From: an uncultured Oscillospiraceae bacterium
GTDB taxonomy: Bacteria; Bacillota; Clostridia; Peptostreptococcales; Anaerovoracaceae
Assembly: GCA_964550965.1 (NCBI GenBank)
Contig: CAZKCB010000002.1
Span: 1-25,176 of the forward strand
DNA: 25,176 nucleotides
Direction of reading: 5' to 3'
Positions within the stretch are counted from its first letter, which is position 1; every line of letters begins with the position of its first letter. The notes beneath the pieces are model-generated. The model had not been told where the DNA came from, ran no database searches, and saw only the letters and a list, made by a program, of their open reading frames with translations. The position numbers and the translations under genes were made by a program. Positions 6,754 to 22,279 of this stretch are shown here, piece by piece.

Positions 6754-8619
6754 CTAATTAGTCTGGCCGACCCGTTCGACTACGATAATATGAATTCCGG
6801 CGCCTTTTATCGTGGAGCTTACATTTAGGATGCCATCGATTTTTTCAAGGCGCACTTGTGCCTGCGGTTCGGTATTCAGCATGCCGACCCAAGCTTCAGT
6901 CAGAGGGGAAAATTCCGGAAACCCCAAATCAGACATATGCGCGAAAATGGAATTGGAATTTGACAAGGCATATTTTGCAATCACATATTGACCGGATAAA
7001 ATCGGAATATTGAAGTCAACGTGCAGTTCATCCATAAAGGAGCGGATGATGTCATTTGTTTCGTGGACACCGGCATTACGCATATAAAGGTGCTCTATGT
7101 CATCGTTATAATTGATCACAATAAACGTATACGAATCTTTTTCGGACAAGTCATTTTTGATTACATAGTAATTGTTTCCACAGGAAAGTATACTTCCCTT
7201 TATATTCTTAAGAAATTGGTACGCGTAAAAAGAAGGCTTTGGGACAAGACAGGAAGTGATGCAGGAAGGAGATCCCTTTAAGATCCTGGAGGGTTCACCC
7301 TGATCCCGCAATCTGCAGTGCAGTATATTTTCCTTTGAAATAAAATAGGTCCGGAATATGTGTATTGCTGCGGCGATTGAGTCATACCCAGCTGAAGAAC
7401 CGCAGTACAAACCGTTGTCGCATGCCGTTGACACTTCATATCCGCTGAAACGCAGCTGGTCTGCAATTCGTGCGCTTTCTGTTTCGCTGTCTTCCTGACG
7501 GATCGCAAGAATCACCTTAGATGCGTTAAGATCAGAAAGCAGATTGAAAAGCCGCTCACCCATGATCTGATGATCCTCTTGCGTGACAAGGACTTCAAGA
7601 GCGTGCTCGAGATCCATAACAGGCGGCACCTTTGGATCCACATCAACGGTGAGATGTGTGCGATTGATGACGGAAGAACTTTTTTCCTGATCACTGGCAG
7701 CTGACAGACATTGTTTTATGAGACTGACTGCCTGATTGTTCGGAAGCAGTTCAAGGCGTGGAGGTCTTGCGGCGCCGAGGATCTGTGAGGTATAAATCTG
7801 ACGATGTTCGAGTGGTGTATGACCAAACCATTTGCGGAAGAATTTTTCGTAATATGAGGTGGTTGAAAAGCCGACATCTCTAGCGATCACGCTGATTTTA
7901 CGATCCGTTTCCAACAGGAGGATTTCCGACATTTCAACTCTGGCGAAACAGAGAAATTCCTTAAAGTTTATGCCAATGTAATCACGGATCAGATGGGAGA
8001 CGTAAAAGGTACTTAAGTGCTCTCTTTCGGCCAATTCTTCAAGCGAGATCTTGCTGGCGTGGTTCGCGTATACATAGTTTATGATCCGGCTGATCCGCTC
8101 GACGATGACCGGATTATCATTGTTGAAATTTACAACAACCTCACCTTCGAAAGCAAATAAGTTGTAATGCTGGTTGAGGTATTTGATTGCGTCGATCATC
8201 TGCTCGATACAGGTGCTTTTATAGTTAAAACTTCTTTTTGAATAATCCAGCAAAATATGAAGCAGTATTTTCTGGAGCACATCCAACTTAAGATGTTTAT
8301 CCTTATTTACATATGTCATAAAACATGCCTTAGTCAAAGCCGGAAAATATTTTGTAAAAAAGCGATTGCTGACCTGCACGATTGCCACAACGCATTCTTG
8401 ATCTGTCGCGGTCAAACCGTGAATTTCATGGCCGCTGTTGGTAAAAATATCTCCTTCTTTTAGAAGATAATGATGACATACGTTTTTCAGACGGATCTCA
8501 CCCTTGAGAACATAGATAAAGTCAACATCCAGATGATAATGGATCGGATATTCCGTAACCTTTGCAATTCTTATGTTTAGTGGAAAGTCGTCAAGATATG
8601 TTGTTTTTTCAAGTAACAC
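6754..8619 (-). CDS. AraC-family regulator: N-terminal cupin, central HTH pair, C-terminal degenerate GH39-like domain (621 aa)
   Basis: GTG start at 8619 with AAGGAGG. HYHLDVDFIYVLKG cupin; ISLEELAERE..S.FY.SH and GFS.TSYY.K.F.K.FG.TP HTHs; KPSFYAYQFL, typical of GH39-like C-termini. Confidence 0.85.
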   Translation of the reverse strand: MLLEKTTYLDDFPLNIRIAKVTEYPIHYHLDVDFIYVLKGEIRLKNVCHHYLLKEGDIFTNSGHEIHGLTATDQECVVAIVQVSNRFFTKYFPALTKACFMTYVNKDKHLKLDVLQKILLHILLDYSKRSFNYKSTCIEQMIDAIKYLNQHYNLFAFEGEVVVNFNNDNPVIVERISRIINYVYANHASKISLEELAEREHLSTFYVSHLIRDYIGINFKEFLCFARVEMSEILLLETDRKISVIARDVGFSTTSYYEKFFRKWFGHTPLEHRQIYTSQILGAARPPRLELLPNNQAVSLIKQCLSAASDQEKSSSVINRTHLTVDVDPKVPPVMDLEHALEVLVTQEDHQIMGERLFNLLSDLNASKVILAIRQEDSETESARIADQLRFSGYEVSTACDNGLYCGSSAGYDSIAAAIHIFRTYFISKENILHCRLRDQGEPSRILKGSPSCITSCLVPKPSFYAYQFLKNIKGSILSCGNNYYVIKNDLSEKDSYTFIVINYNDDIEHLYMRNAGVHETNDIIRSFMDELHVDFNIPILSGQYVIAKYALSNSNSIFAHMSDLGFPEFSPLTEAWVGMLNTEPQAQVRLEKIDGILNVSSTIKGAGIHIIVVERVGQTN

Positions 8620-8781: not shown

Positions 8782-11154
8782 ATGCTAACATCGAGAGTTC
8801 AGAAAATGCGGGAAAAGCTTTTCAACACGATTCCAACAATCACAGCAGAGAGACTGGTCCTGGCAACGGAAGCCTATCAGAAATTTGCCGGTGATGCGGT
8901 TCCTATTTTCAGAGCCAAGGTGGTCAACTACATCATGGAGAACATGACAACACTGATCATGGATGATGAACTGATCGTAGGAACAGCAACAAATGCATAT
9001 CGTGGTTCCAATCTGCATCCCGAATTTCAGTCAAGTTCATGGTATCTCAGTGATATTGACGAATTTTCAAGCAGAAGCAAGGACCCCTGCAATATTTCCC
9101 CGGAAGACAAAGCGACGATCGTAGAAACGCTCAAGTACTGGGAAGGGAAGTCCATGGAAGACCTGGCAGAGATCATAATGCCGGCATCCATTCGCGAACT
9201 CCAAAAAGACGACGTTATTTGCGTAGGCCTTCAGAATGGTGTCTCAGGGGAAACGACCTGCGATCACGAAAAGATCCTGACGGTAGGAATCAGAGGGTAC
9301 ATCGAAGAGTGCCAAAGAAACATCGAGAACACCCTTCCTCAGACCATGGAGGATCAAGCTAAGGTGGATTTTTGGAAGGCTTGCATCATCCAGAGCGAAG
9401 GCCTGATCACATACGCGCATAGAATGGCAGACGAAGCCGAAAGAATGGCAAAAGAATGCACAGACACGAAAAGAAAGCAGGAGCTTCTTACGATTGCAGA
9501 AAACTGCAGGATCATTCCGGAAAACCCACCGCAGAGTTTTCAGCAGGCGCTTCAGACCGTCTGGTTCGTGCATGTCTATTTCTACATTGAAGTTTGCACT
9601 ACTGCATGCGGATTCGGCAGATTTGACCAGTACATGTGGCCATTCTACAAAAAGGACGTGATCGACGAGAAGAACATCACAAGAGAAGAAGCCTTGGAAA
9701 TGCTGGAATGCTGTTATCTCAAGGCTTGTGAAGTATATGAAGTAAGAGACAACTGGTATGCAACCGCATTCGCAGGTTATCCCATGTGGCAGATCCTTGT
9801 TGTGGGCGGACAGACGAGAGACGGTAAAGATGCATCAAATGACTTATCGTTCCTCTGTCTGGAAGCAGCAGATGAGCTCCGAACAACACAGCCTGTCATG
9901 GCACTGCGGGTCTTTCCCGAAACGCCGCACGAACTGATCGAGTTCGGCTGCAAGATGATTCAGGAAGGTCAGGCAAACCCGGGATTTTTTAACGATGAAA
10001 CCGCAATCAAGATGGCTCTTGGCAAGGGAGGCACTTTAGAAGAAGCACGAGACTGGACCATCGTTGGCTGTATTCAGGCAGGACCTGGGGGCGGCGGAAC
10101 AGATGGTTCCCCTGATGCCGGATACGTTAACATGGGCAAGATGATCGAGTTCGTTCTGCATAACGGCCTTGACCCTGTTACAGGAAAGCTCATGGGGCTC
10201 GAAACCGGAGACCCCAGAGAATTCAAGAACATCGAAGAATTCAAGGATGCGCTCAAAAAGCAGATCATCCATCATTACGATCTCATCAGGATCGGCTACA
10301 ACCTGATGCAGAGCAACCACATGAATCGTTACCCTGTCATCTTCGCATCGATGGTAACCAGAGGCTGCGTGGAAAGCGGCAGATCCGTACAGAACGGTGG
10401 AGCACAGTACTCGACAGCTGGCATGTACGTTACAGGGGCAGCGAACCTTGCAGACTCCATCGCAGCAGTAGAAAAGTGTGTATTCGAGGATCAGGACCTG
10501 ACAATGGATGAACTGATCAAGGCCTGCGACACAAACTTCGAAGGACAGGAAAGAGTACGCCAGCTTCTGCTGAATAAACCCGGAAAATACGGGAACAACC
10601 AGGACCACGTTGATAGCATCTACAAGGAAATGATGCACCATATTGCGAATATGGTTCAGGGCTGGAATGACGCCAGAGGCGGACATTACAGTTTTGGAAT
10701 CGACTCACAGACGATGAATATTCCACATGGTGCCGTTACAGGCGCACTCCCGGATGGAAGGCTTGCAGGCGAATCATTTTGCGATGCTGCTTCTCCAATG
10801 ATGGGCAGAGACATCAACGGCCCGACTGCTACCGTTAAGTCGGTTGGCGGCATTGGACAGGAAGTATTACAGGAAGGTGCACTGTTCAACCTGCGCTTTG
10901 ATCCGAAGGGGGTTCAGGGAGAAAGCGGGCGGAATATTATCGGAGGCGTGATCAAGACATTCTTCGAAGATGGCGGCGAACATATACAGATCAATGTTGT
11001 AGACAATGAAACCCTCAAAAAGGCACAGGAAAAACCTGAGAACTACAAGGGGCTCATGGTTCGTGTAGCAGGATACATGGCATACTTCACAGAACTGGAT
11101 AAGAGCGCCCAGGATGTAATTATCAACAGAACTGCGCACTTATCGCAGAATTAG
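8782..11154 (+). CDS. Glycyl radical enzyme (PFL2/dehydratase-like superfamily), substrate unknown (790 aa)
   Basis: ATG 8782 with AGGAGG. Glycyl loop RVAGY (11062-11076), thiyl loop GCIQ (10066-10077), GRFDQY and AFAGYPMWQ.L.VGG; adjacent activase. Confidence 0.92.
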   Translation: MLTSRVQKMREKLFNTIPTITAERLVLATEAYQKFAGDAVPIFRAKVVNYIMENMTTLIMDDELIVGTATNAYRGSNLHPEFQSSSWYLSDIDEFSSRSKDPCNISPEDKATIVETLKYWEGKSMEDLAEIIMPASIRELQKDDVICVGLQNGVSGETTCDHEKILTVGIRGYIEECQRNIENTLPQTMEDQAKVDFWKACIIQSEGLITYAHRMADEAERMAKECTDTKRKQELLTIAENCRIIPENPPQSFQQALQTVWFVHVYFYIEVCTTACGFGRFDQYMWPFYKKDVIDEKNITREEALEMLECCYLKACEVYEVRDNWYATAFAGYPMWQILVVGGQTRDGKDASNDLSFLCLEAADELRTTQPVMALRVFPETPHELIEFGCKMIQEGQANPGFFNDETAIKMALGKGGTLEEARDWTIVGCIQAGPGGGGTDGSPDAGYVNMGKMIEFVLHNGLDPVTGKLMGLETGDPREFKNIEEFKDALKKQIIHHYDLIRIGYNLMQSNHMNRYPVIFASMVTRGCVESGRSVQNGGAQYSTAGMYVTGAANLADSIAAVEKCVFEDQDLTMDELIKACDTNFEGQERVRQLLLNKPGKYGNNQDHVDSIYKEMMHHIANMVQGWNDARGGHYSFGIDSQTMNIPHGAVTGALPDGRLAGESFCDAASPMMGRDINGPTATVKSVGGIGQEVLQEGALFNLRFDPKGVQGESGRNIIGGVIKTFFEDGGEHIQINVVDNETLKKAQEKPENYKGLMVRVAGYMAYFTELDKSAQDVIINRTAHLSQN

Positions 11155-11174: not shown

Positions 11175-12110
11175 ATGAGTAATATGCCTGAAAGCGTTCT
11201 TGTGGGAAACCTTCAGAAATTCTCTATAGAAGACGGTCCCGGCATCAGAACGACGGTATTCCTGAAGGGCTGCCCACTCAGCTGTAAGTGGTGTCACAAT
11301 CCTGAGTTGATCGACCCGAAGCAGCAGCTGATCAAGTCACCAAACAACTGCATCGGATGTGGATACTGCATCAGGATATGCCCAAAGGCTGCATTGACGC
11401 TGGACCCGGAAGCGGAAGTAGTCATTGACAGATCCAAATGCGATGTGTGCCTCAAGTGTGCAGATGAGTGCTACGCAAAAGGTTAAAGACCTGTAGCTAA
11501 GCCAATGACCATCGATGAAATACTTGACATCGCGGGGCAGGATAAAGGCTTCTATAATAACACAGGGGGCGGCATTACCGTCAGCGGAGGAGAAATCCTC
11601 ATGCACGTAGGGTTTGTCAGCAAGCTCATCGAGGAAGCGGGAAAACGAGGCATCAACGTGTGTCTGGATACCTGTGGCTTCGGAGATTCAAGGGCGCTTA
11701 TGGAAATGGCGCTAGCGGAAAACGTCACGAACATTCTTTATGATATGAAGTCAATTGACGACGAAGTTCACAGAGAGTACACGGGAGTGAGTAATCAGCT
11801 GATCCTTGACAACCTGAGAATGCTCGCAGCAGATGCAAAAACTTTGGATAAGCTGATCATGAGAATGCCTCTCATCAAGGGCGTGAATGACAGCGACGAC
11901 ATCATTAAGCACACGGGCGAGCTTTACAGAGAAATCGGAGTGAAACGACTGGATCTGCTCCCATATCACAGCCTTGGCATCAGCAAGGAAAGAAATGTGG
12001 GTGGCACACAGGAGGAACTCGAACCGCCGACCGAAGAGCGTCTGAAAGAAATAGAACTGTATTTCAGAAATGAAATGGATTTGAATGTGGGAATAATGGG
12101 TCAATTATAA
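11175..12110 (+). pseudogene. GRE-activating radical SAM enzyme with ferredoxin-like insert, split by one in-frame TAA at 11484-11486
   Basis: GPGIRTTVFLKGCPLSCKWCHNPE (CX3CX2C), two CX2CX2CX3C clusters, SGGE, DTCG, RMPLI, LLPYH. Both ORF halves share one frame. True pseudogene versus base-call error unresolved. Confidence 0.85.
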
Positions 12111-12147: not shown

Positions 12148-13560
12148 ATGGACGGGACTAATTTAGGAATCATCACCTTAATTCCGGCACTGGGCTTCTT
12201 AGTATTCGCTCTGGTGACTAAGAAGTGTATTCTGAGTATCATGTTATCTGGTATACTCGGGTACATCTTTTACTACAAAGCAGGGTTCTTCATGCCAACG
12301 ATCGACGCATTGCTCGCGGCATCGACCGATGGGGACAACAACTATATCGTAATCATTTGTTTGCTGTTCGGGTGCTTCGTACAGCTGCTCAGACAGTCAA
12401 AGGGAGCTGTGGCAATATGTGACATAGCCAGAAAGTACATTAAGACAGAAAAACAAGTACTGCTGATGACGTGGATCTGCGGAGTGATCATATTCATCGA
12501 TGACTACCTCAGCATCCTGGTTACCGCAAATTGTACACTTCCCCTTGCGGATGAACACAAGGTGCCCAGAGAAATGATGTGCTACATCATCAATACAACC
12601 TCGGCTCCGGTTTGTCTGATCATACCGATTTCCGCATGGGTCGTATTCTTCTCGGGAATCTTTGGGCAACAGAAAGAGGCAGCAGTAGTTGGTGACAGTG
12701 CAATGAGCATTTATTACCATATCATGCCATACTTCTTCTATCCGTTCCTTTGTGTATTCTTCGTGCTCTTCGTCATTCTGGGAGTCGTTCCGAAAATGGG
12801 CGGCATTAAGAAAGCCTACCAGAGAGTTGCCGAAACCGGACAGCTTTGGCCGCCGTCCAGCAACATGCAAAACCAGGGCGATGAACTGGGTGACGTAATG
12901 GGGGCCATCTCGGATTGTAATGCAAAGGAAGAAAAAGAAGTAAAACCGCATCTTTGGGCGTTCCTCGTGCCGATGGCAGTGGTGATCATCTCAACATTAT
13001 GGCTGGACGATATCCTTTATGGAGTCAGCCTGGGAATTTTCTCTTGTTTCGTTTTGTTTGTTCCCACCAGGATTATGAGTCTTGGCAAGTTCTGCGATGC
13101 CTGCTATAAGGGTCTTGAAGATATGCTATTTATCGCAGTTGTGCTTGTTACATCCTTATTCTATCGGGAATCCATCAACCTGATCGGCTTGCCTGACTAT
13201 CTGATTACTGTTGCAGGACCCTATATGAGTGCAGAATGGCTTCCTGCGATCTCCTTCCTGCTCATTGGTCTTGTATGCTTTGCAACCGGAAATATCTGGA
13301 GTATCCCTGCGGTATGTACCCCAATCATTTTACCGCTGGCTGCTGCAAGCGGTGCAAGCATTCCACTCACACTCGGAGCCATTATTTCAGCGGCCTGCTT
13401 TGGTGCACAGGCTTGCTTCTACTCGGACGTAACGCTGTTGTCGGCTTCAGCATGCAAAATCAATAACGTAGATTATGCGGTTGCACAGTTGCCATACATA
13501 GGAATTGTCACCGCAATATCATTCATCGGCTATGTGGTCTTTGGATTCGCATTGTCGTAA
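12148..13560 (+). CDS. NhaC-family (Na+/H+ antiporter-like) solute transporter
   Basis: 470 aa, many TM segments, IFIDDYLSIL motif, GN.WS, Q...YSDVT.LSA. RBS GAGGAAGG. Confidence 0.8.
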   Translation: MDGTNLGIITLIPALGFLVFALVTKKCILSIMLSGILGYIFYYKAGFFMPTIDALLAASTDGDNNYIVIICLLFGCFVQLLRQSKGAVAICDIARKYIKTEKQVLLMTWICGVIIFIDDYLSILVTANCTLPLADEHKVPREMMCYIINTTSAPVCLIIPISAWVVFFSGIFGQQKEAAVVGDSAMSIYYHIMPYFFYPFLCVFFVLFVILGVVPKMGGIKKAYQRVAETGQLWPPSSNMQNQGDELGDVMGAISDCNAKEEKEVKPHLWAFLVPMAVVIISTLWLDDILYGVSLGIFSCFVLFVPTRIMSLGKFCDACYKGLEDMLFIAVVLVTSLFYRESINLIGLPDYLITVAGPYMSAEWLPAISFLLIGLVCFATGNIWSIPAVCTPIILPLAAASGASIPLTLGAIISAACFGAQACFYSDVTLLSASACKINNVDYAVAQLPYIGIVTAISFIGYVVFGFALS

Positions 13561-13704: not shown

Positions 13705-13780
13705 GGAGTAATTAAGACCAAATATTAGGCGGGAAATTAAAAATACTGGGAGAAGAAGCCCTGAACGGTTGGGAAGAATT

Positions 13781-14182
13781 ATGGAAAGAACAAAAATAAA
13801 TTATAATAATATAGAGGATTACCTTCTGAATTTTCCACAGGATGTACAGGCAAAGCTTAGAGCGATGAGAGCGACTATCGTTGCAGCAGCTCCTGATGCA
13901 GTAGAAAAAATCAGTTACCAGATGCCGACCTTTGTATTGGAAGGAAATCTGGTTCACTTTGCAGCATTTAAGAACCATATAGGTTTTTATCCGACGCCGA
14001 GTGCAATCGTAGAATTTTGTGAGCAATTAAAAGCTTATAAATGCTCAAAAGGGGCAATTCAATTTCCTTTGGATATGCCTTTGCCACTTGAACTGATAGA
14101 GCAAATTGTAAAATTTAGAGTTGGGGAAAACCTCAAAAAACATGAAGAAAAAACAGGAAAATCGAAAAGAAGGAACACATGA
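13781..14182 (+). CDS. DUF1801 / YdhG-like (iron-chaperone-like) protein
   Basis: AAPDAVEKISYQMPTF, LVHFAAFKNHIGFYP, KGAIQFP.D.PLP. ATG 13781 preferred over TTG 13769. Confidence 0.85.
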   Translation: MERTKINYNNIEDYLLNFPQDVQAKLRAMRATIVAAAPDAVEKISYQMPTFVLEGNLVHFAAFKNHIGFYPTPSAIVEFCEQLKAYKCSKGAIQFPLDMPLPLELIEQIVKFRVGENLKKHEEKTGKSKRRNT

Positions 14183-14994
14183 AAATCATGAAACCTCTTG
14201 AAAGAAGTAGATTAAGAATACTGTGCGGGAGAACCTGTTATACTGTATTGAGATACTTTGAATGGCATTTCAGTGATAAGAGATATTCAAAAATGAAGGG
14301 GAAAGAAATACTCCCGCATGTTATTTTTTCGCACGAAACGCCACTGTTTCGTGAATTGAAAAACGTGGATATGTGGCTGCAAGATAATAAAATCAATAAC
14401 CTTAAAATTGCAGTGGAAAGAGTAAACGGAATACTTATACATCCTGGAGAAACCTTTTCATATTGGAAACTGATCGGAAATCCAACAGCACGAAAAGGAT
14501 ACATGAAGGGCATGGTTTTATTCTATGGCGGCTTTAAGGCAGGTACGGGCGGCGGCTTATGCCAGCTATCGAATTTGATCTATTGGATGACAATACATAC
14601 TCCATTGAACGTGACTGAAAGACATAGACACAGCTATGATGTTTTTCCGGATTCAAATCGGACGCAACCTTTTGGCAGCGGAGCAACCTGTGTATATAAC
14701 TATAGAGATTTACAAATACGCAATGATACAAACCAAACATATCAATTGCAGCTACAAGTAACAGATAAAGACCTTTGCGGAGAGTGGAGAAGCACAGAAG
14801 AGCAAGAAAGTAAATTTGAAATATATGAGAAGGAACACAGAATAACACACGAATGGTGGGGCGGGTACATACGCCACAATCTTCTTCACAGGAAAGAATA
14901 TGACTCGGAGGGTGCATTGGTTGCAGATGCATATTTGACAGAGAACCACGCCATTATGATGTATCAGCCATTTTTAAGTGATGGCAAAGAGTAA
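14179..14994 (+). CDS. vanW: VanW-family protein
   Basis: NK..NL..A...NG..I.PGETFS, GGGLCQLSNL, ERH.HS, DLQIRNDT. ATGA overlap with the upstream gene. Family-level call only. Confidence 0.85.
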   Translation: MKIMKPLERSRLRILCGRTCYTVLRYFEWHFSDKRYSKMKGKEILPHVIFSHETPLFRELKNVDMWLQDNKINNLKIAVERVNGILIHPGETFSYWKLIGNPTARKGYMKGMVLFYGGFKAGTGGGLCQLSNLIYWMTIHTPLNVTERHRHSYDVFPDSNRTQPFGSGATCVYNYRDLQIRNDTNQTYQLQLQVTDKDLCGEWRSTEEQESKFEIYEKEHRITHEWWGGYIRHNLLHRKEYDSEGALVADAYLTENHAIMMYQPFLSDGKE

Positions 14995-15055
14995 CTTGGT
15001 CTTCATTTGTTATTGGATTTTTCAATTACCTATTTAAAGATGGAGGTTATTCCAA

Positions 15056-15841
15056 ATGCTTGAAGTAAAGAAAAATGAAATGTGCAATATCGCAGATTTA
15101 TTTAAAGGTTTTGAGGATTCTATGGTAATTGCTTGTCTTCAAGGATATATGGGCAGAGCATATGTTGACAGGCTATCAGATCCGACGATTGCGATGATAG
15201 TAAGTGGAGAATATAGTTTTTTTGCTGGGAATGCAAAAATGGAAGCGGCCAAAGCATTAGTAGAAAATATCTTTGAGTATATCGGGGAAGCTTCTACTGT
15301 AGCCATATACGCAGATGATAATTTGGAGTGGAGAGATCTCCTGCTATCAGTGCCTGAGAATAATCCGGTAGAAGTTGCCAGATACGGCATAGTCCAAAAG
15401 GACTATGAATTTAATATATATGCATTGAATAATTTTATTGATTCAATGCCTGAAGGTTATGAATTAAAGAGATTCGATAAACAGATATATGAACAGGCTA
15501 TGAGTGAGACCTGGTCTAAGGAGTTTTGCGAAACCTTCGATTCGGTAGAAGATTACTTGGAAAAGGGATTTGGATTTGGCGCATTATATCAGGGGAAGTT
15601 GGTTGCTGGCGCTTCAACAATGACGGTTTATGATGGCGGAATTGAAGTTCAAGTTGCAACAAAAGACGAATTTCAACGTAAAGGTTTAGCAATGCCTTGT
15701 GCGTCAGCGCTATTACTCGAATGTATGTATAGAAAAATTCGGCCTTGCTGGGATGCGGCCACATTGATTTCTAAGCATATGGCTTTGAAATTAGGATATG
15801 AATACAAGGGAGAGTATTCTACAGTGCATATGCGTATTTGA
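15056..15841 (+). CDS. GNAT family acetyltransferase (GNAT_acetyltran-like)
   Basis: G.GFG..Y.GK.VAGAS, IEV.VAT...FQRKGLA, P.WDA....S..MA.KLGY. RBS GGAGG. Confidence 0.85.
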   Translation: MLEVKKNEMCNIADLFKGFEDSMVIACLQGYMGRAYVDRLSDPTIAMIVSGEYSFFAGNAKMEAAKALVENIFEYIGEASTVAIYADDNLEWRDLLLSVPENNPVEVARYGIVQKDYEFNIYALNNFIDSMPEGYELKRFDKQIYEQAMSETWSKEFCETFDSVEDYLEKGFGFGALYQGKLVAGASTMTVYDGGIEVQVATKDEFQRKGLAMPCASALLLECMYRKIRPCWDAATLISKHMALKLGYEYKGEYSTVHMRI

Positions 15842-15898
15842 TGTTGGCAATATATATTTACAGTTCGACGCAAAGGCGCCACAAAACGGAGGGAAAAT

Positions 15899-16522
15899 AT
15901 GGAAATTATAATCAAGCCGCTCACGGCGGAGCTTACCGCAGATTACTTCGACTTCCTTGATAAACGCGCATTTACCGATAATTCTCCGTGGGGTGGGTGT
16001 TATTGTACCGGTTGGCAGATGACAAAGGCAGAAGAAAAAATCCAATTACTCGACCAAATGGAAGAAGGCTTTGCATATGGCGACAAAAACTTTATACGCG
16101 TACTTCGTGAAATCGGCACGCGACAAATCAAAGCGAAAGCTTTACGGGGATATTTAGCATATGTTGATGGCGTGTCGATCGGTTGGTGCAACGCGAACGA
16201 TAAAGCCAGTTTCCCGGCCGAATCTGCGAACGGATTTCGGCTGTATGCTCCCGCCGAAAAGCGGGAAAAAGCGGTCGTTTGCTTTGAAATCGCTCCAGAG
16301 TATCGAGGGAAAGGCGTTGCCACCGCTTTGCTGAACAGAGTAGTGAGCGATGCAAAAGCCGAAGGGTATGTTGCCATAGAAGGTTTTCCTCAAGTGCACG
16401 ACGAAAGGTTCGAATGGGACTATACCGGACCTGTTTCCTTGTATGAGAAAGTGGGATTTACTGCAATGACTAAGCTAGACGGCAGCATTATTATGAGAAA
16501 AGAATTAAAATCGGATAAGTAA
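15899..16522 (+). CDS. GNAT family acetyltransferase
   Basis: W.GCYC, GYLAY.DG..IGWCNA, VCF.IAPEYRGKGVA..LL, IEGFP, YTGP..LYEK.GF. RBS GGAGGG. Confidence 0.88.
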   Translation: MEIIIKPLTAELTADYFDFLDKRAFTDNSPWGGCYCTGWQMTKAEEKIQLLDQMEEGFAYGDKNFIRVLREIGTRQIKAKALRGYLAYVDGVSIGWCNANDKASFPAESANGFRLYAPAEKREKAVVCFEIAPEYRGKGVATALLNRVVSDAKAEGYVAIEGFPQVHDERFEWDYTGPVSLYEKVGFTAMTKLDGSIIMRKELKSDK

Positions 16523-16554
16523 AAATACAATACAAAAGAGAGGTATATGGGAAT

Positions 16555-17250
16555 ATGAAAACGATTGGATTGATTGGCGGAATGAGTTGGGAATCCTCAG
16601 CGGAATACTATCGAATTCTAAATCAACTGGCCAAAAAAGCATTGGGGGATATGCATTCCTGCAAGTGCATCATGTACTCCGTTGAGTTTGGCGAAATTGA
16701 AGCACTGCAACGCAAAGGAGATTGGGAAAAATTAACATCCATAATGCTTGATGTGGCGCAGAAGTTGGAGAAAGCAGGAGCAGAATTTGTAGTGATCTGC
16801 ACCAATACAATGCACCTGATGGCTCCGGAAGTCCAGGCAGGCATAGGGGTTCCGGTGCTGCACATCGCTGATGCCGCTGCAGAAGAGATCAAGAGGCAGG
16901 GATTGAAGAAAGTCGGGCTGTTGGGAACCCGGTTCACCATGGAAAAGGATTTCTAAAAGGGCAGAATAGCAGAGAAACATGGGAAAGAAGTAAACGTTCC
17001 CCGCGAAAAAGAATAAACGACCATAACAAAAGTAAAACAAAAATAATAGTAAAAAAAGTTTGTAAAAACAGAAAAAAAAAATCAGTATAAAGAAGTGATC
17101 CAAAGACTCTTGGATAATGGGGCAGAAGGCATCATTCTCGGATGCACAGAAATCCCGATGCTGATCAAGCAAGCGGATGTCGCTGTACCCATTTTTGACA
17201 CAACAGCCATACACGCAGAATACGCTATGGAATACGCGCTCAAGGAATGA
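16555..17250 (+). pseudogene. Aspartate/glutamate racemase family gene (231-codon frame) with 5 in-frame stops in an A-rich patch
   Basis: MKTIGLIGGMSWESS, ICTNTMH, GLLGTRFTM and, in the same frame, GAEGIILGCTEIP..PIFDTT.IHA. Stops at 16954, 17014, 17044, 17047, 17050. Confidence 0.85.
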
Positions 17251-17266
17251 AAGGAGATTTAGATCA

Positions 17267-17335
17267 ATGGATTGGCACAATCTTAAACTACAAGATAAGA
17301 CTTGTGTCTGCAATATGATCCAAAATCAGTTTTAA
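17267..17335 (+). CDS. Possible 22-aa small ORF or remnant (MDWHNLKLQDKTCVCNMIQNQF)
   Basis: ATG with AAGGAG RBS directly after the racemase stop. No family recognised. Confidence 0.25.
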   Translation: MDWHNLKLQDKTCVCNMIQNQF

Positions 17336-17426
17336 AGATAATGCTATCGAAAAGAGAGGCTGCCTTGCATGAAAATATTATTGATTTATTTGCTATGATA
17401 TAGAAAAAAGAAAAGGAGATTTTAAT

Positions 17427-17582
17427 ATGACTGCTATCTTCCCAATGTTTTTTACAGGAATTTTATACTTTGCATTAATTGGTGTTTCCGTGTATGCGCT
17501 GGTGCTGTTTATTATGCTTGCCAAAAGAGGAATAAAGGCACTAGACATATATATTGCTGAAAAAACGAACAAAATGCTTTAA
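17427..17582 (+). CDS. Small single-pass membrane protein (51 aa), absent from the ORF track
   Basis: AAAGGAG RBS. MTAIFPMFFTGILYFALIGVSVYALVLFIMLAKRGIKALDIYIAEKTNKML: hydrophobic helix plus basic tail. Confidence 0.7.
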   Translation: MTAIFPMFFTGILYFALIGVSVYALVLFIMLAKRGIKALDIYIAEKTNKML

Positions 17583-17605
17583 ATCATTTAAAAAGGAGAG
17601 TTTCA

Positions 17606-18025
17606 ATGAAAGATATAGAGCAAACCATAGGCAATTTGATCGACAAAGTAGATGTTTCTTTTATTGCTTCTGTAGATGGTGAGGGATTTCCAAATATGAA
17701 AGCTATGTTGCCTCCACGAAAAAGAGAAGGAATCAAGTGCATTTATTTTACGACAAATATTTCGTCTATGAGAGTAAGTCAATATAAAGAAAACCCAAAA
17801 GCAAGCGTGTACTTTTGTGATAATCTCTGTTTTAAAGGCGTTATGTTAAAAGGAACTATGGAGGTTCTTGAAGATCAAAATTCAAAAGAAATGATTTGGC
17901 GTAATGGTGATAAAATGTATTATCCATTGGGTGTAACGGATCCGGATTATTGTGTTTTAAAATTTAACGCAGCTGAAGGAAGGCATTATAGCGATTTTAG
18001 ATCGGAAAATTTCGAAGTTTATTGA
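17606..18025 (+). CDS. Pyridoxamine 5'-phosphate oxidase-like flavin-binding protein
   Basis: SVD.EGFPN.KAM, YFTTN.SS.RV.Q...NPKASVYF, YY..GV.DPDYCVLKF. RBS AAGGAG. Confidence 0.88.
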   Translation: MKDIEQTIGNLIDKVDVSFIASVDGEGFPNMKAMLPPRKREGIKCIYFTTNISSMRVSQYKENPKASVYFCDNLCFKGVMLKGTMEVLEDQNSKEMIWRNGDKMYYPLGVTDPDYCVLKFNAAEGRHYSDFRSENFEVY

Positions 18026-18067
18026 TGGTACTAAACTAAGTTGGTTTGTTTAGTGAAAGGTATAAGT

Positions 18068-18604
18068 ATGTCAATTATAAACACTGAAAGATTGATATTG
18101 CGCCCCTTGAAAATCAGCGATTCGGATGATGTTTTTGATTATTCCTGCACAGCAAATGTCGGACCGAATGCAGGGTGGAAGCCGCATGAGAGCAAAGAAG
18201 AAACACTTGAAATAATGAACGCTATTTTTTTGAATCAGGAAACAGTATGGGGAATCGAGCAAAAAGAAAGCGGACGAATCATTGGTTCGATAGGCGTGAT
18301 CGACGACCCTAAAAGAGAATATGATATGGTGAAAATGATCGGATACGCAATAGGTGAAGCTTATTGGGGCAAAGGGTTTATGACAGAGGCTGCCCGTGAG
18401 GTGATTAAATTTTGCTTTGAGGAATTACATTTGGCAGCAATTTCAGCGTATTGTTTTCCTTTTAATGAACGCTCAAAGAATATTATTAAGAAGTTTAATT
18501 TTGAATATGAGGGATGTTTGAAAATGGCGGAAAAGATATTTGATGGCAATGTTTATGACAACGAGTGTTATTTGTTGACGGAGCAAAGATATTATTCCAA
18601 ATGA
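18068..18604 (+). CDS. RimJ/RimL-type GNAT acetyltransferase
   Basis: TERLILRP, GP.AGW.PH, IGYA....YWGKGFMTEA, N.RS..II.K..F.YEG. Confidence 0.88.
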   Translation: MSIINTERLILRPLKISDSDDVFDYSCTANVGPNAGWKPHESKEETLEIMNAIFLNQETVWGIEQKESGRIIGSIGVIDDPKREYDMVKMIGYAIGEAYWGKGFMTEAAREVIKFCFEELHLAAISAYCFPFNERSKNIIKKFNFEYEGCLKMAEKIFDGNVYDNECYLLTEQRYYSK

Positions 18605-18645
18605 ACGTGATCACTAATTATTTTGTTTGAAAAGAGAGGTAAATT

Positions 18646-19113
18646 ATGAAATTTATAAGCCCGCTGATCGCTGTTTCCGACATGGAAAAGTCAAAGCGCT
18701 TTTACTATGATGTGCTTAGTTTGGAAGTCATAGCTGATTTTGGTGCAAATGTAATTTTGACAGGCGGACTATCCTTGCAGACCAAGGATAGCTGGTGTGT
18801 TTTTATTCGAAAAGAAGACAGCGAAATCGTTTTTGGAGGAAACACCGGGGAACTATATTTTGAAGAAGATGATTTGGATGCTTTCATTCAAAAGCTGGAG
18901 CAGATGAAAGAAATACAGTATATCCATCCTGCGGTAGAACATTCCTGGGGACAGAGGGCTGTTCGCTTTTATGACCCGGACAAGCACATTATTGAAGTCG
19001 GAGAACCTATAATTATGGTGGTCAGACGATTCTTGAATAGTGGGTTGTCCGTGGAAGAAACAGCTGCTCGAATGGATGTACCGGTCGATTATATAAAATC
19101 CTGTTTAGAATAG
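18646..19113 (+). CDS. Glyoxalase / bleomycin-resistance (VOC) family protein
   Basis: LIAVSDMEKSKRFY..VL, ELYFE, EHSWGQRAVRFYDPD.HIIEVGE. RBS GAGGT. Confidence 0.88.
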   Translation: MKFISPLIAVSDMEKSKRFYYDVLSLEVIADFGANVILTGGLSLQTKDSWCVFIRKEDSEIVFGGNTGELYFEEDDLDAFIQKLEQMKEIQYIHPAVEHSWGQRAVRFYDPDKHIIEVGEPIIMVVRRFLNSGLSVEETAARMDVPVDYIKSCLE

Positions 19114-19213
19114 CTTTCGAATAAAATTTAAAAATTGTTTTGCTTTCTATTTTTAAGCATGATATTTTGGCGATAACAAACCAATTCTGCTTTGCCAAGA
19201 AAGGAAAACAAAA

Positions 19214-19669
19214 ATGAAAATCAAGATCGAAAGCATACGACCCTATCAAATTGCTTATATAAGGAAAGTTGGGCCTTACGGAACCGATAATATCAAAACC
19301 ATGGAGCGATTAAAAACCTGGGCGAAGTCAAATGATTTATTCAATGATGAATCCATACTCTTAGGCATTGCTCATGATGATCCGCAAACCACAAAACCTG
19401 AGGCGTGTCGTTATGATACTTGTTTTGTTGTTCCCGAAGGATGTTTCGTAAATGATGATGATATAAGCCACGGCAATTTGGAAGGTGGAAGATACGCTGT
19501 CTTTGAAGTAAACCACACCGCAGAAGCCGTTGAAAAAGCATGGATTGAAATTTTTCCAGCATTAACAAAAAAAGGACATCGCTTCGATGAAGCAAGACCG
19601 ATCCTTGAAAGGTATAAAGTCAAACTGATTAAAAAGCATTTTTGTGAAATTTGTGTACCTATACATTGA
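19214..19669 (+). CDS. GyrI-like small-molecule-binding protein
   Basis: IAY.R.VGPYG, GIAHDDP..T.PE.CRYD.C, GGRYAVF..H, P.LERY. Confidence 0.88.
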   Translation: MKIKIESIRPYQIAYIRKVGPYGTDNIKTMERLKTWAKSNDLFNDESILLGIAHDDPQTTKPEACRYDTCFVVPEGCFVNDDDISHGNLEGGRYAVFEVNHTAEAVEKAWIEIFPALTKKGHRFDEARPILERYKVKLIKKHFCEICVPIH

Positions 19670-19697
19670 GTTGGACTGGGAAAGTTTAGAGGGTTAT

Positions 19698-20657
19698 ATG
19701 AAAAAACAATTGATTGCCATTCTTATACTTTTGCTTCTCCTTACTTTTCCGGGATGCGGAAATGCAAAAAATTCTGAGGCTTCGGGAGATGACAAGGTAC
19801 TTTTGCAAACCATTGATCACCTTTCAAAAATAAACAGCTATGAAATAAGAACAAGCAGGGTCGAATCTACGGCCTTTGGTGATAAGAAAGTCATGTCTCA
19901 AATAATCACAGAGCAGAAGATCATATTTGCACCCTTTGTAATCTGGAGCAGAACCGATTCAACATCTGCACAAATGCTTGATGGAACAAAATACAGATCG
20001 TTGAGAGAAACGTATCAAGTATTGAATGATGATCAGCTTGATATGTACATGCGATATAGTCCTGATCAAAACCCTGCGACTGGAAAAGAACCTGTCTTAG
20101 GTGAATGGCAGGAAATCTCTACCGCGAAAAAGGAACAGGCCGATTGGGCGGTTGATAATATGAGGAGCAATTTTGCAGCCCAACTTTATTTGTTAAGCTC
20201 AAATATTGACACCTTCGAGATCGTTGAAAATGATGCGATAGAAGATGAAAACATTCTTAGATATGACGGATACCTCGAACAGACAACGATACTCAAAGCA
20301 TACCAAAAGTACATCAGAAATAGTTATGTTAAGGGCGGAATGTTAAAAGACTCAAAAAATCTGTCTCTTGAGGATCTGAAAAATGAAATAACAGGCGGAG
20401 ATATGCTTGAAATCAAAACAGGGATCCCAAAGCTTGCTTATTCTGAAAAGCCAATTTCCGTTTCTTTGTGGATCGATAAAAGCAGCCTCCAATTAGAAAA
20501 AGTAACCGTTGACGAAATGGCCGTGCTGCAATCGTATATGGAAAAAGAAATGCCAAAAGTCGACCCCGAGCTTAAAGACCCGATCGTTTCGAAAGCCTTG
20601 CTCACATATGAAATAAAGAGCATAGATAAATTAAAAGAAATACCCATGCCTGAGTAA
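19698..20657 (+). CDS. Hypothetical lipoprotein
   Basis: ATG 19698 with GAGGG. MKK + hydrophobic stretch + FPGC lipobox; C-terminal LWIDK...QLEK..VD, reminiscent of LolA-like lipoproteins. Confidence 0.78.
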   Translation: MKKQLIAILILLLLLTFPGCGNAKNSEASGDDKVLLQTIDHLSKINSYEIRTSRVESTAFGDKKVMSQIITEQKIIFAPFVIWSRTDSTSAQMLDGTKYRSLRETYQVLNDDQLDMYMRYSPDQNPATGKEPVLGEWQEISTAKKEQADWAVDNMRSNFAAQLYLLSSNIDTFEIVENDAIEDENILRYDGYLEQTTILKAYQKYIRNSYVKGGMLKDSKNLSLEDLKNEITGGDMLEIKTGIPKLAYSEKPISVSLWIDKSSLQLEKVTVDEMAVLQSYMEKEMPKVDPELKDPIVSKALLTYEIKSIDKLKEIPMPE

Positions 20658-20681
20658 TAAAGATTTGAAAGGGAGCATAAC

Positions 20682-21281
20682 TTGCATTCGGATGTTAAGG
20701 AAAAATTGAAAAGAGGAAACAAAATACTCTTTACAAGAGACAGCAGTTGTCTGCAAAAACTGATTCGACTGGTTGAATTGCAAAAACATCGGACTCTTGT
20801 TATGTGGGCTTTTGAATGCGCTGAAATACCCTTGAACCTGTTGGAAGCAAAATATCCAAGCGAGCAAAGACCCAGAATCGCTATCGAATGTGCCAAAGCA
20901 TGGGCAAGAGGAGACCTGAAAATGCCTGCTGCAAAAAAAGCGATCTTGGATGCACATGCCGTTGCCAAAGAAATCGAAGATGAGGTGTACATCGCATTGT
21001 GTCATGCAATAGGCCATGCGGGGGCAACGGTTCATGTTGAAACACACGCTTTGGGCTTGGTCTTCTATGAGTTGAGTGCGATTGTTTTGCTAAACGGAAA
21101 AGAAAATTTCGATTTGGCTGTAAATGAAAAAATAGATTATTATTACGATAGACTTCTTTATTGGCAAAAAAATATCGATACCTTAGATGTTCCATGGTCA
21201 AAATTTTTATTGGATGATACTCGTCCTAACAAAGAAAAATCATTATTAGGCAGATTGGCTAAAGGAGAAGATAAATTATGA
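20682..21281 (+). CDS. Imm5-like (putative immunity) protein
   Basis: TTG start with AAGGGAG. L..WA.ECA....E..YP..RPR.AIE.A.AWA.G, A..A..HA.AT.HV..HA. Confidence 0.75.
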   Translation: MHSDVKEKLKRGNKILFTRDSSCLQKLIRLVELQKHRTLVMWAFECAEIPLNLLEAKYPSEQRPRIAIECAKAWARGDLKMPAAKKAILDAHAVAKEIEDEVYIALCHAIGHAGATVHVETHALGLVFYELSAIVLLNGKENFDLAVNEKIDYYYDRLLYWQKNIDTLDVPWSKFLLDDTRPNKEKSLLGRLAKGEDKL

Positions 21282-21802
21282 TGAGGATCGAATGCGAAGA
21301 TATCATATTAAGACCATGGGAAGCAAAGGATGCCGAAAGATTGGTGGAAATTGCCGACAATAAAAAAATCTATGACAACCTGAGAGATTATTTCCCGCAT
21401 CCATACACTTTGGAAGATGGAAAAAAATATATTGAAAGCTTATCCAATGATGAAAAGGCACTGATTTTTGCGATCGAATATGACGGCGTTTTGGTTGGAA
21501 ACATAGGAGCCTTTTTGCAATCGGATGTATATAGGAAGAATGCAGAAATAGGATATTTTTTAGCAGAAGAATTTTGGGGAAAAGGGATCATGACAAAGGC
21601 CATCAGAGCGATAACGTCCTATGTGTTCGAAAACCATGACATTATAAGGGTCTACGCAGAGCCTTTTGCGAGAAATATCGGATCGAGAAAATCCCTTGAG
21701 AAATCGGGTTTTAGGCATGAGGCAACATTGAAGAAAAGTATCATTAAAAATGGCTTGATAGAAGACAGTTGCATATACTCTATATTAAAAGAAGAATCCT
21801 GA
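21278..21802 (+). CDS. RimJ/RimL-type GNAT acetyltransferase
   Basis: NLRD.FPHPYT..D, AEIGYFLAEEFWGKGIMT.A, N.GSR..LEK.GF..E. Confidence 0.9.
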   Translation: MMRIECEDIILRPWEAKDAERLVEIADNKKIYDNLRDYFPHPYTLEDGKKYIESLSNDEKALIFAIEYDGVLVGNIGAFLQSDVYRKNAEIGYFLAEEFWGKGIMTKAIRAITSYVFENHDIIRVYAEPFARNIGSRKSLEKSGFRHEATLKKSIIKNGLIEDSCIYSILKEES

Positions 21803-21826
21803 GATCTGGGTTTGGAGAAAATCGAA

Positions 21827-22279
21827 ATGAAGAAAATGATTTTAATATTGATTTCACTGACTCTGCTTATTTTTAGTGCTTGCACAAATAAAGAAGTTAT
21901 AAAACATGATTATACTTACACGGGAGAAAGTGAAAATTGGGTCGCTGAATATAAGGTGGATGGCAAGGGAATCTTTACCGAGAAAGACGGCAGGACCGAA
22001 TACGAATGCAATGAAGAGACCAGGTTGACCGTGACCTATAAAAAAGACATAGAAGACCTGTCTACCCTGAAATGCATGAAAATCTCTTATGAAAGCAGCG
22101 CTGGCAGCGGAAGCCTAACTCAAAATCCTGCAGATGGTGATCCCGTGAGTAAAAAGACCTTTACACTTTCCGGCGGGGGTTCAGGTACCGCCATCGAAAA
22201 CAAAGATGAAACCATTAAAGTGACGATAGATCTTGATGGAAATATCGAAACCCTTGAACTTAAAAATGAGAACCTTTGA
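21827..22279 (+). CDS. Hypothetical lipoprotein
   Basis: MKKMILILISLTLLIFSAC lipobox; GES.NW motif. ATG 21827 with GGAG. Confidence 0.8.
   Translation: MKKMILILISLTLLIFSACTNKEVIKHDYTYTGESENWVAEYKVDGKGIFTEKDGRTEYECNEETRLTVTYKKDIEDLSTLKCMKISYESSAGSGSLTQNPADGDPVSKKTFTLSGGGSGTAIENKDETIKVTIDLDGNIETLELKNENL

Follow-up and report, generated by a model that had tools for sequence, protein, structure and literature searches.

Glycyl radical enzymes (GREs) carry out difficult anaerobic chemistry, and several of those from gut bacteria make disease-linked metabolites, among them trimethylamine, p-cresol, skatole, and H2S precursors. The subject here is an intact gene for one such oxygen-sensitive enzyme on a stretch of 25,176 nucleotides (assembly GCA_964550965.1, contig CAZKCB010000002.1, positions 1 to 25,176, forward strand; the whole stretch is hereafter called the window) from an uncultured Oscillospiraceae bacterium, placed by GTDB in the Anaerovoracaceae. 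Its product has Gln, rather than the Glu of the characterized eliminases and isomerases, two residues after the catalytic Cys, and belongs to a Cys-x-Gln family whose pocket carboxylates appear to lie elsewhere.

According to a 2026 review, the Cys-x-Glu motif is kept by all six C–O eliminases, CutC, three C–S lyases, and three isomerases (HplG, YbiW, and PflD), with its Glu hydrogen-bonding the substrate. A first, sequence-only reading of this DNA had cited the rule for characterized eliminases and several decarboxylases, and the review states it for all eliminases and isomerases. In HplG, the trans-4-hydroxy-D-proline C–N lyase, the motif is Cys427-x-Glu429, with the Glu hydrogen-bonding the C4-OH. 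Exchange of the Cys-loop Glu for Gln abolishes activity in HypD and in CutC, which needs Glu491 (E491Q is inactive). The first-shell residues of CutC are Tyr208, Asp216, Thr334, Phe389, Phe395, Cys489, Glu491, Thr502, Tyr506, Leu698, and Ile700, and those of HypD are His160, Asp278, Ser334, Asp339, Phe340, Glu436, Tyr450, and Thr645. The only characterized GRE with Cys-x-Gln in its Cys loop is the phenylacetate decarboxylase PhdB/PAD, which contains Cys482-x-Gln484 and whose Q484E, Q484A, and Q484L variants are inactive or nearly so; the statement in the sequence-only reading that this enzyme also lacks the Glu was thus correct.

The GRE gene (Table 1) runs from an ATG, with the ribosome-binding site AGAAGGAGG located 6 nt 5′ of it, to a TAG stop at 11152–11154. 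Its product matches both the PFL-like barrel (PF02901, 613.9 bits) and the C-terminal glycine-radical domain (PF01228, 102.8 bits), carries an RVxG[FWY] loop, and has Cys430 aligned to the catalytic Cys of glycerol dehydratase (GD), 1,2-propanediol dehydratase, HplG, and CutC, all as in the PFL-like branch of the GRE superfamily. It barely exceeds the NCBIfam cut-off for the PFL2/glycerol dehydratase subfamily TIGR01774 (680.1 vs. 678.2 bits). None of the NCBIfam GRE equivalogs, for which the curated cut-offs are 1000–1150 bits, is reached: HypD scores 571, CutC 526, HpsG 533, HpfG 522, IAD 462, and HPAD 321 bits. An AlphaFold2 model built on a 60-sequence alignment (predicted local distance difference test score 94.7, predicted template modeling score 0.93) superposes on 1,2-propanediol dehydratase (5I2A/5I2G and 9RCO), GD (1R8W), and HplG with template modeling (TM) scores of 0.96–0.97 and a root-mean-square deviation of about 1.5 Å, so that the scaffold is of the ordinary eliminase type. 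The gene encodes a functional-looking GRE of the eliminase/isomerase structural class, and its ratio of nonsynonymous to synonymous substitution rates (dN/dS) is 0.05 against the closest relative (90% amino acid identity).

Within this ordinary scaffold, the active site is unusual. The GCIQ site and all other motifs quoted in the sequence-only reading were found in the translated open reading frame and in a HMMER alignment to GD (1R8W), from which the residue equivalences were taken and in which the segments SGETTCD, EVCTTACG (residues 270–277), GCIQ, and GIDSQTMN face GH, ESNGHS, GCVE, and GLYPSS of GD. His164 of GD is replaced by Glu157, His281/Ser282 by Thr274/Ala275, Cys433-Val-Glu435 by Cys430-Ile-Gln432, and Tyr640 by Asp641, with Asp447 retained as Asp445; the usual substrate His positions are therefore changed, as that reading had supposed. 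After Gln432 the Cys loop continues into a Gly-rich GPGGGG segment, and is one residue longer than in relatives. In alignments, the position of Glu157 corresponds to His160 of HypD and to Asp216, or the residue beside it, of CutC; Asp641 and Gln643 correspond to the first-shell residues Leu698 and Ile700 of CutC. Altogether, the first shells of CutC and HypD map onto Glu157, Thr273/274, Phe330 and Trp336 (both within AFAGYPMWQILVVGG, residues 329–343), Gln432, Tyr448, Asp641, and Gln643.

These residues are conserved within the family and uncommon among the nearest clusters. Gln432, Glu157, Thr273, Thr274, Ala275, and Asp641 are invariant in 13 of 13 members (83–90% identity), and the GET, EVCTTA, and GCxQ motifs are identical in every one of the 77 loci listed (74–86% identity); this invariance indicates that the pattern is not due to chance. 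Of the nearest 50%-identity clusters, 142 representatives were compared: two positions after the Cys, 103 have Glu and seven have Gln, and at position 157, 99 have His and four have Glu. The Cys-x-Glu of the GRE 1,2-eliminases and isomerases is absent, with Gln432 conserved throughout the Cys-x-Gln family. From aligned positions we infer that the carboxylate of the Cys loop has gone from the pocket and that others have appeared, at 157 and 641 in one subfamily (A, that of the window) or at 157 and 337 in the other (B), and it is this loss in one place and gain in another that suggests a relocated acid/base. Of the more distant relatives, one (P0127) has Glu at position 641, and the Cys-x-Glu sisters have Ala or Leu.

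Comparison with individual GREs does not assign the enzyme to any of them. HplG is the best match among solved structures (568 bits), shares the fold (TM score 0.97), and like the window protein has an [ST]-Gln motif in the beta-8 loop. However, an HplG-like representative is only about 38% identical and 7VUA, by structural alignment, 36%; all specificity segments differ, Glu429 is replaced by Gln, and no hydroxyproline or aminoketopentanoate pathway gene lies nearby. Orthology with HplG was therefore rejected, the relationship being that of sister clades only. GD and 1,2-propanediol dehydratase share with it the FxGYPMxQ...VGGQ strand, the conserved Asp, and the Gly loop, but belong to another part of the tree, and no microcompartment or aldehyde dehydrogenase genes are found near the window gene. 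An ordinary diol dehydratase with a benign substitution was likewise rejected, since five catalytic or specificity residues differ and the Glu-to-Gln exchange is lethal in HypD and CutC. The diol-dehydratase-like backbone of the sequence-only reading thus holds for the fold, which matches HplG equally well; by phylogeny, the nearest characterized relative is HplG. CutC (5FAU, about 33% identical) has an acidic G-[DE]-T-(T)-C motif at or beside Asp216 (the residue facing choline's cationic head), resembling Glu157, and its Phe389, Phe395, and Tyr506 are equivalent to Phe330, Trp336, and Tyr448; its Leu698 and Ile700, however, are exchanged for Asp641 and Gln643, and the window gene has no cut-cluster or microcompartment genes around it. 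Overall, the best solved relatives are only about 36–38% identical, no equivalog is reached, and the Cys-x-Glu rule is broken, in support of the proposal that the enzyme has a different substrate or chemistry; clustering with a characterized GRE having the same residues was looked for and was not found.

The phylogeny (IQ-TREE, 43 GRE sequences) resolves a clade with 100/99 support into two groups. One (96/92) consists of P0128, with CVE, and the HplG-like P0133, with CIE; the other holds the window protein and branches as (P0127 [CVQ], (P0126 [CTQ], (subfamily A, subfamily B))), with supports of 96/85, 100/100, and 100/100, respectively. In this tree, the Cys-x-Gln proteins around the window protein thus form a monophyletic clade whose sister is the HplG group. 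The representatives classed as PhdB-like, by motif only (Cys-x-Gln, Trp at Cys+13, and S-x-Y-x-V), fall into a distant 100/100 clade, and one of them, P0242, is 35% identical to the window protein; orthology with PhdB was therefore rejected. Two further homologues (P0218 and P0256) have Thr at the radical site (RVSTYS) together with Cys-x-Gln, and are presumably threonyl radical enzymes. Because the PhdB-like clade is distant and this third lineage is also Cys-x-Gln, the tree indicates that the Cys-loop Gln arose at least three times independently.

The family is large and comes mostly from Anaerovoracaceae: species-representative genomes contain 427 relatives, and over 120 close cluster representatives, among them ones from Aminipila, Emergencia, and "Anaerotruncus sp. 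80", are 82–90% identical to the window protein; in a 50%-identity library, the next relatives fall to 52%, 45%, and 43%, and then to ≤39%. Cultured hosts include Emergencia timonensis SN18 (with two paralogues), Hornefia butyriciproducens, Aminicella lysinilytica, Ihubacter, and Senimuribacter, and the family also occurs in many metagenome-assembled genomes (MAGs) from humans, mice, ruminants, and bioreactors. Named amino acid degraders, such as Aminicella lysinilytica, Aminipila, and Emergencia, are among the hosts. No characterization of the family was found in the GRE literature on its hosts, on hydroxylysine, and on new C–N cleavers, with most subscription journals lying outside this search.

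Alignment of the 77 full-length members from 80 loci divides the close relatives into two subfamilies. Subfamily A comprises 39 sequences including that of the window, 78–86% identical to it, with FGIDSQTMN, PMWQ[IT], and Asp641/Gln337; subfamily B comprises 38 sequences, 74–77% identical plus one locus at 78.6%, with FNVHSQTVN, PMWEI, and His641/Glu337. Only five positions discriminate strictly between them (G639N, D641H, M645V, A669N, and E698D), three of which are in the beta-8 loop, and the Gln337/Glu337 exchange covaries with these positions with few exceptions. SGET (with Glu157), EVCTTA, GCxQ, the GGG stretch, DGSPDAGY, and SQT are common to both. The Cys-x-Gln clade is more diverse than these two subfamilies. 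Two more GCTQ paralogues are encoded about 4 kb apart at one locus (L005:1765–4173, P0276, and L005:8001–10373, P0126), each with a separate set of genes for an AraC regulator, an activase, and an EamA transporter.

The genomic surroundings bear on the substrate. In the window, the GRE gene lies between a divergent AraC-family regulator gene and genes for a radical S-adenosylmethionine (SAM) activase and an NhaC-type transporter (Table 1); the flanks are unrelated small genes. This four-gene cassette recurs with differing flanks in Aminipila, Emergencia, and metagenomes. The regulator, likely starting at the GTG at 8619 behind AAGGAGG, has an N-terminal cupin domain, an HTH_18 domain, and a C-terminal domain of about 330 residues without a Pfam match; the corresponding regulator gene (617–624 residues) is divergent to the GRE gene in relatives and in 53 of the 80 loci. 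The NhaC-type gene lies directly 3′ of the activase gene in 32 loci, all of subfamily A, and the window copy has a dN/dS of 0.03 against the closest relative. The GRE and the transporter are thus both under strong purifying selection.

Table 1. Features of the GRE cassette in the window
Feature	Position	Strand	Details
GRE, subfamily A of the Cys-x-Gln clade	8782–11154	+	790 aa; PF02901 + PF01228
Glu157 codon	9250–9252	+	SGETTCD = residues 155–161
Cys (thiyl) loop WTIVGCIQAGPGGGG	10054–10098	+	Residues 425–439
Cys430 codon	10069–10071	+	Cys430-Ile-Gln432
Gln432 codon	10075–10077	+	CAG
Late (beta-8) loop GIDSQTMN	10696–10719	+	Residues 639–646; main A/B specificity switch
Glycyl radical loop RVAGY	11062–11076	+	Residues 761–765; Gly764 = 11071–11073
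AraC-family regulator, divergent from GRE	6754–8619	−	About 621 aa; Pfam Cupin_2 + HTH_18
GRE-activating radical SAM enzyme, interrupted	11175–12110	+	311 codons; TIGR02494, 294 bits across the stop
NhaC-superfamily membrane transporter, presumed substrate importer or exchanger	12148–13560	+	470 aa; Pfam PF03553

In subfamily B, the gene directly upstream of that of the GRE encodes a short-chain dehydrogenase/reductase (SDR) in 23 loci or a non-homologous aldo-keto reductase (AKR) in nine, both of which gave only generic ketone/aldehyde reductase matches in the PDB and NCBIfam. The occurrence of two non-homologous carbonyl reductases at the same position argues that the product (or substrate) of the GRE is a carbonyl compound, and this coupling fits lyase/isomerase chemistry better than decarboxylation. 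The transporter in subfamily B is a LysP-like amino acid permease (which scores 548 bits against PRK10836), an EamA exporter, or an NhaC/ArcD-like protein, and an M20 amidohydrolase is sometimes present; together, the transporter types and the hosts suggest an amino-acid-like compound. Among more distant relatives, P0126 (52% identical) is encoded with an SDR and an NhaC/DcuC-type transporter, P0127 adjoins HplG orthologues, proC, and glmL-like genes, and P0128 adjoins an SSF symporter and DAO-type oxidoreductases; the contexts of P0127 and P0128 point the same way. Emergencia timonensis SN18 carries both subfamilies: the A copy (L056) with AraC, activase, and NhaC genes, and the B copy (L086) with an SDR upstream and no activase called beside the GRE gene. 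A search of the window and seven related loci with Rfam at the gathering threshold gave no riboswitch; its sole hit was a group II intron domain (RF02001, 114 bits) at L079:12007–12175, downstream of the Aminicella lysinilytica GRE locus.

The explanation that we tentatively prefer, at somewhat less than an even chance, is that the enzyme uses relocated carboxylates to act, as a radical lyase or isomerase, on an imported compound that resembles an amino acid and bears an amine. The adjacent radical SAM activase would install the radical on Gly764, as in the wider family. In subfamily A, the pocket residues suggest that the acid–base work of the Cys-loop Glu is taken over by Glu157 and Asp641, and in the sister subfamily B by Glu337 with His641, with Gln432 probably acting only as a hydrogen-bonding residue. 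Judging from the context, the substrate would be a cationic or zwitterionic, amine-bearing, amino-acid-like compound, in which the bond beta to the radical (C–N or C–O) may be cleaved to yield a carbonyl or imine product, on which the SDR or AKR of subfamily B would then act. The AraC regulator and NhaC-type transporter would complete a self-contained uptake-and-conversion cassette. Of the candidates considered—5-hydroxylysine, threonine/allo-threonine, hydroxy-imino acids, carnitine-type compounds, and imidazole acetate—none is supported beyond being amine-bearing.

Several points weigh against this explanation. Because the exchange of the Cys-loop Glu for Gln kills HypD and CutC, the relocation of the base is something that we infer, and the first-shell assignments come from sequence alignment to solved enzymes together with published structures. 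P0126, moreover, has no acidic residue at either 641 or 337. With its many Asp, Glu, Gln, Thr, and Trp residues, the pocket would be equally compatible with a neutral polyol or sugar. No reductase accompanies the subfamily A enzyme, and the product of that enzyme may therefore differ from that of subfamily B. Finally, the stop codon in the activase gene, described below, makes GRE activity in this organism uncertain.

A dehydratase or isomerase acting on a neutral compound (a polyol, a diol, or a sugar-like molecule), with the pocket binding hydroxyls and Glu157 replacing the His/Glu pair, would account for the closeness of the fold to those of 1,2-propanediol and glycerol dehydratases and for the match of Asp445 to Asp447 of GD; AraC regulators and SDR/AKR partners are, furthermore, typical of polyol pathways, and GRE sugar isomerases (YbiW and PflD) are known. 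We nevertheless consider it unlikely, since none of the 80 loci contains kinase, aldolase, sugar transporter, microcompartment, or aldehyde dehydrogenase genes, the transporters are of the NhaC, LysP-like, amino acid, or EamA type, the nearest clades occur in proline/hydroxyproline contexts, and His164, His281, Ser282, Glu435, and Tyr640 of GD are all changed. Still less probable is a PhdB-like decarboxylase working by hydrogen atom transfer, in which Gln432 would act as Gln484 does in PhdB and the NhaC-type protein would exchange the acid for its decarboxylated product. The essential Cys-x-Gln of PhdB and the composition of the subfamily A cassette—an enzyme, an activase, and a transporter, with no downstream enzyme—agree with such a decarboxylase, but the PhdB-like representatives are distant, and Trp495, Tyr691, and Val693, which form the hydrophobic pocket of PhdB, correspond to Ser443/Pro444, Asp641, and Gln643. 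In addition, two carboxylates and no Arg or Lys occupy the aligned first-shell positions, and the sister subfamily, at 75% identity, is coupled to carbonyl reductases, for which a decarboxylase has no need. Thus, among the chemistries listed in the sequence-only reading (decarboxylation, isomerization, and C–C or C–N cleavage), decarboxylation is the least supported. There is also a small chance that the Cys-x-Gln clade performs an undescribed GRE reaction, with subfamilies A and B acting on related substrates. This might be, for example, a radical C–N cleavage or deamination of an amino acid or amine that passes through an alpha-aminoalkyl radical or one like it and does not involve the Glu-dependent ketyl step, and A and B might handle stereoisomers or close analogues through the swap of Asp641/Gln337 for His641/Glu337.

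Apart from the question of chemistry, the copy in this genome may be dying or dead, with the activase a pseudogene and the GRE no longer activatable, a possibility that we take seriously while leaning against it. An in-frame TAA (11484–11486) falls at codon 104 of the activase gene, just after the second auxiliary-cluster Cys motif, where relatives have Ala-Leu (GCC TTA) and the window has Gly-stop (GGT TAA); unless the assembly is wrong at the stop, this copy is therefore inactive. The activase is intact in all relatives inspected, and no second GRE activase above cut-off was found in the source genome, a MAG that is 78% complete and consists of 380 contigs. On the other hand, the cassette shows no visible defect other than the TAA, both pieces of the activase still match activase models, and both halves have a dN/dS of about 0.14 against the closest relative, which has an intact 311-residue activase, in line with the purifying selection on the GRE and the transporter. 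Furthermore, the only public runs that contain this stretch are two low-depth "rock metagenome" runs with a contig depth of 2–4×, and no contig covers 11105–11605, which includes the stop. The same MAG also has a CutC-like GRE fragment (EENQTG...GRVDQY) at the end of contig C362 (L096:1–1660), preceded by another open reading frame, implying a choline-type locus and at least one further activase in the unassembled part.

Downstream of the cassette, positions 13769–22279 hold a run of small, same-strand, unrelated genes resembling a cassette array, which encode DUF1801 and VanW proteins, several GNAT acetyltransferases, glyoxalase/bleomycin-resistance-like and GyrI-like proteins, and an Imm5-like immunity protein. 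An Asp/Glu racemase-like open reading frame of 133 aa among them (16555–16956) matches only the first 122 of 211 Pfam model positions and may be a truncated gene.

What is new here is the monophyly of the clade as sister to HplG, the verified and independent precedent of PhdB, the division into subfamilies A and B with their swapped residues and contrasting gene contexts, and the interruption of the activase gene. The family breaks the Cys-x-Glu rule of every characterized eliminase and isomerase, and its clade is unrelated to PhdB, the one known exception. The two-residue swap between subfamilies A and B offers a ready-made specificity experiment. Once found, the substrate would add a new nutrient or metabolite pathway to those of gut anaerobes that ferment amino acids, and would show whether, in a GRE, the catalytic base can move around the barrel.

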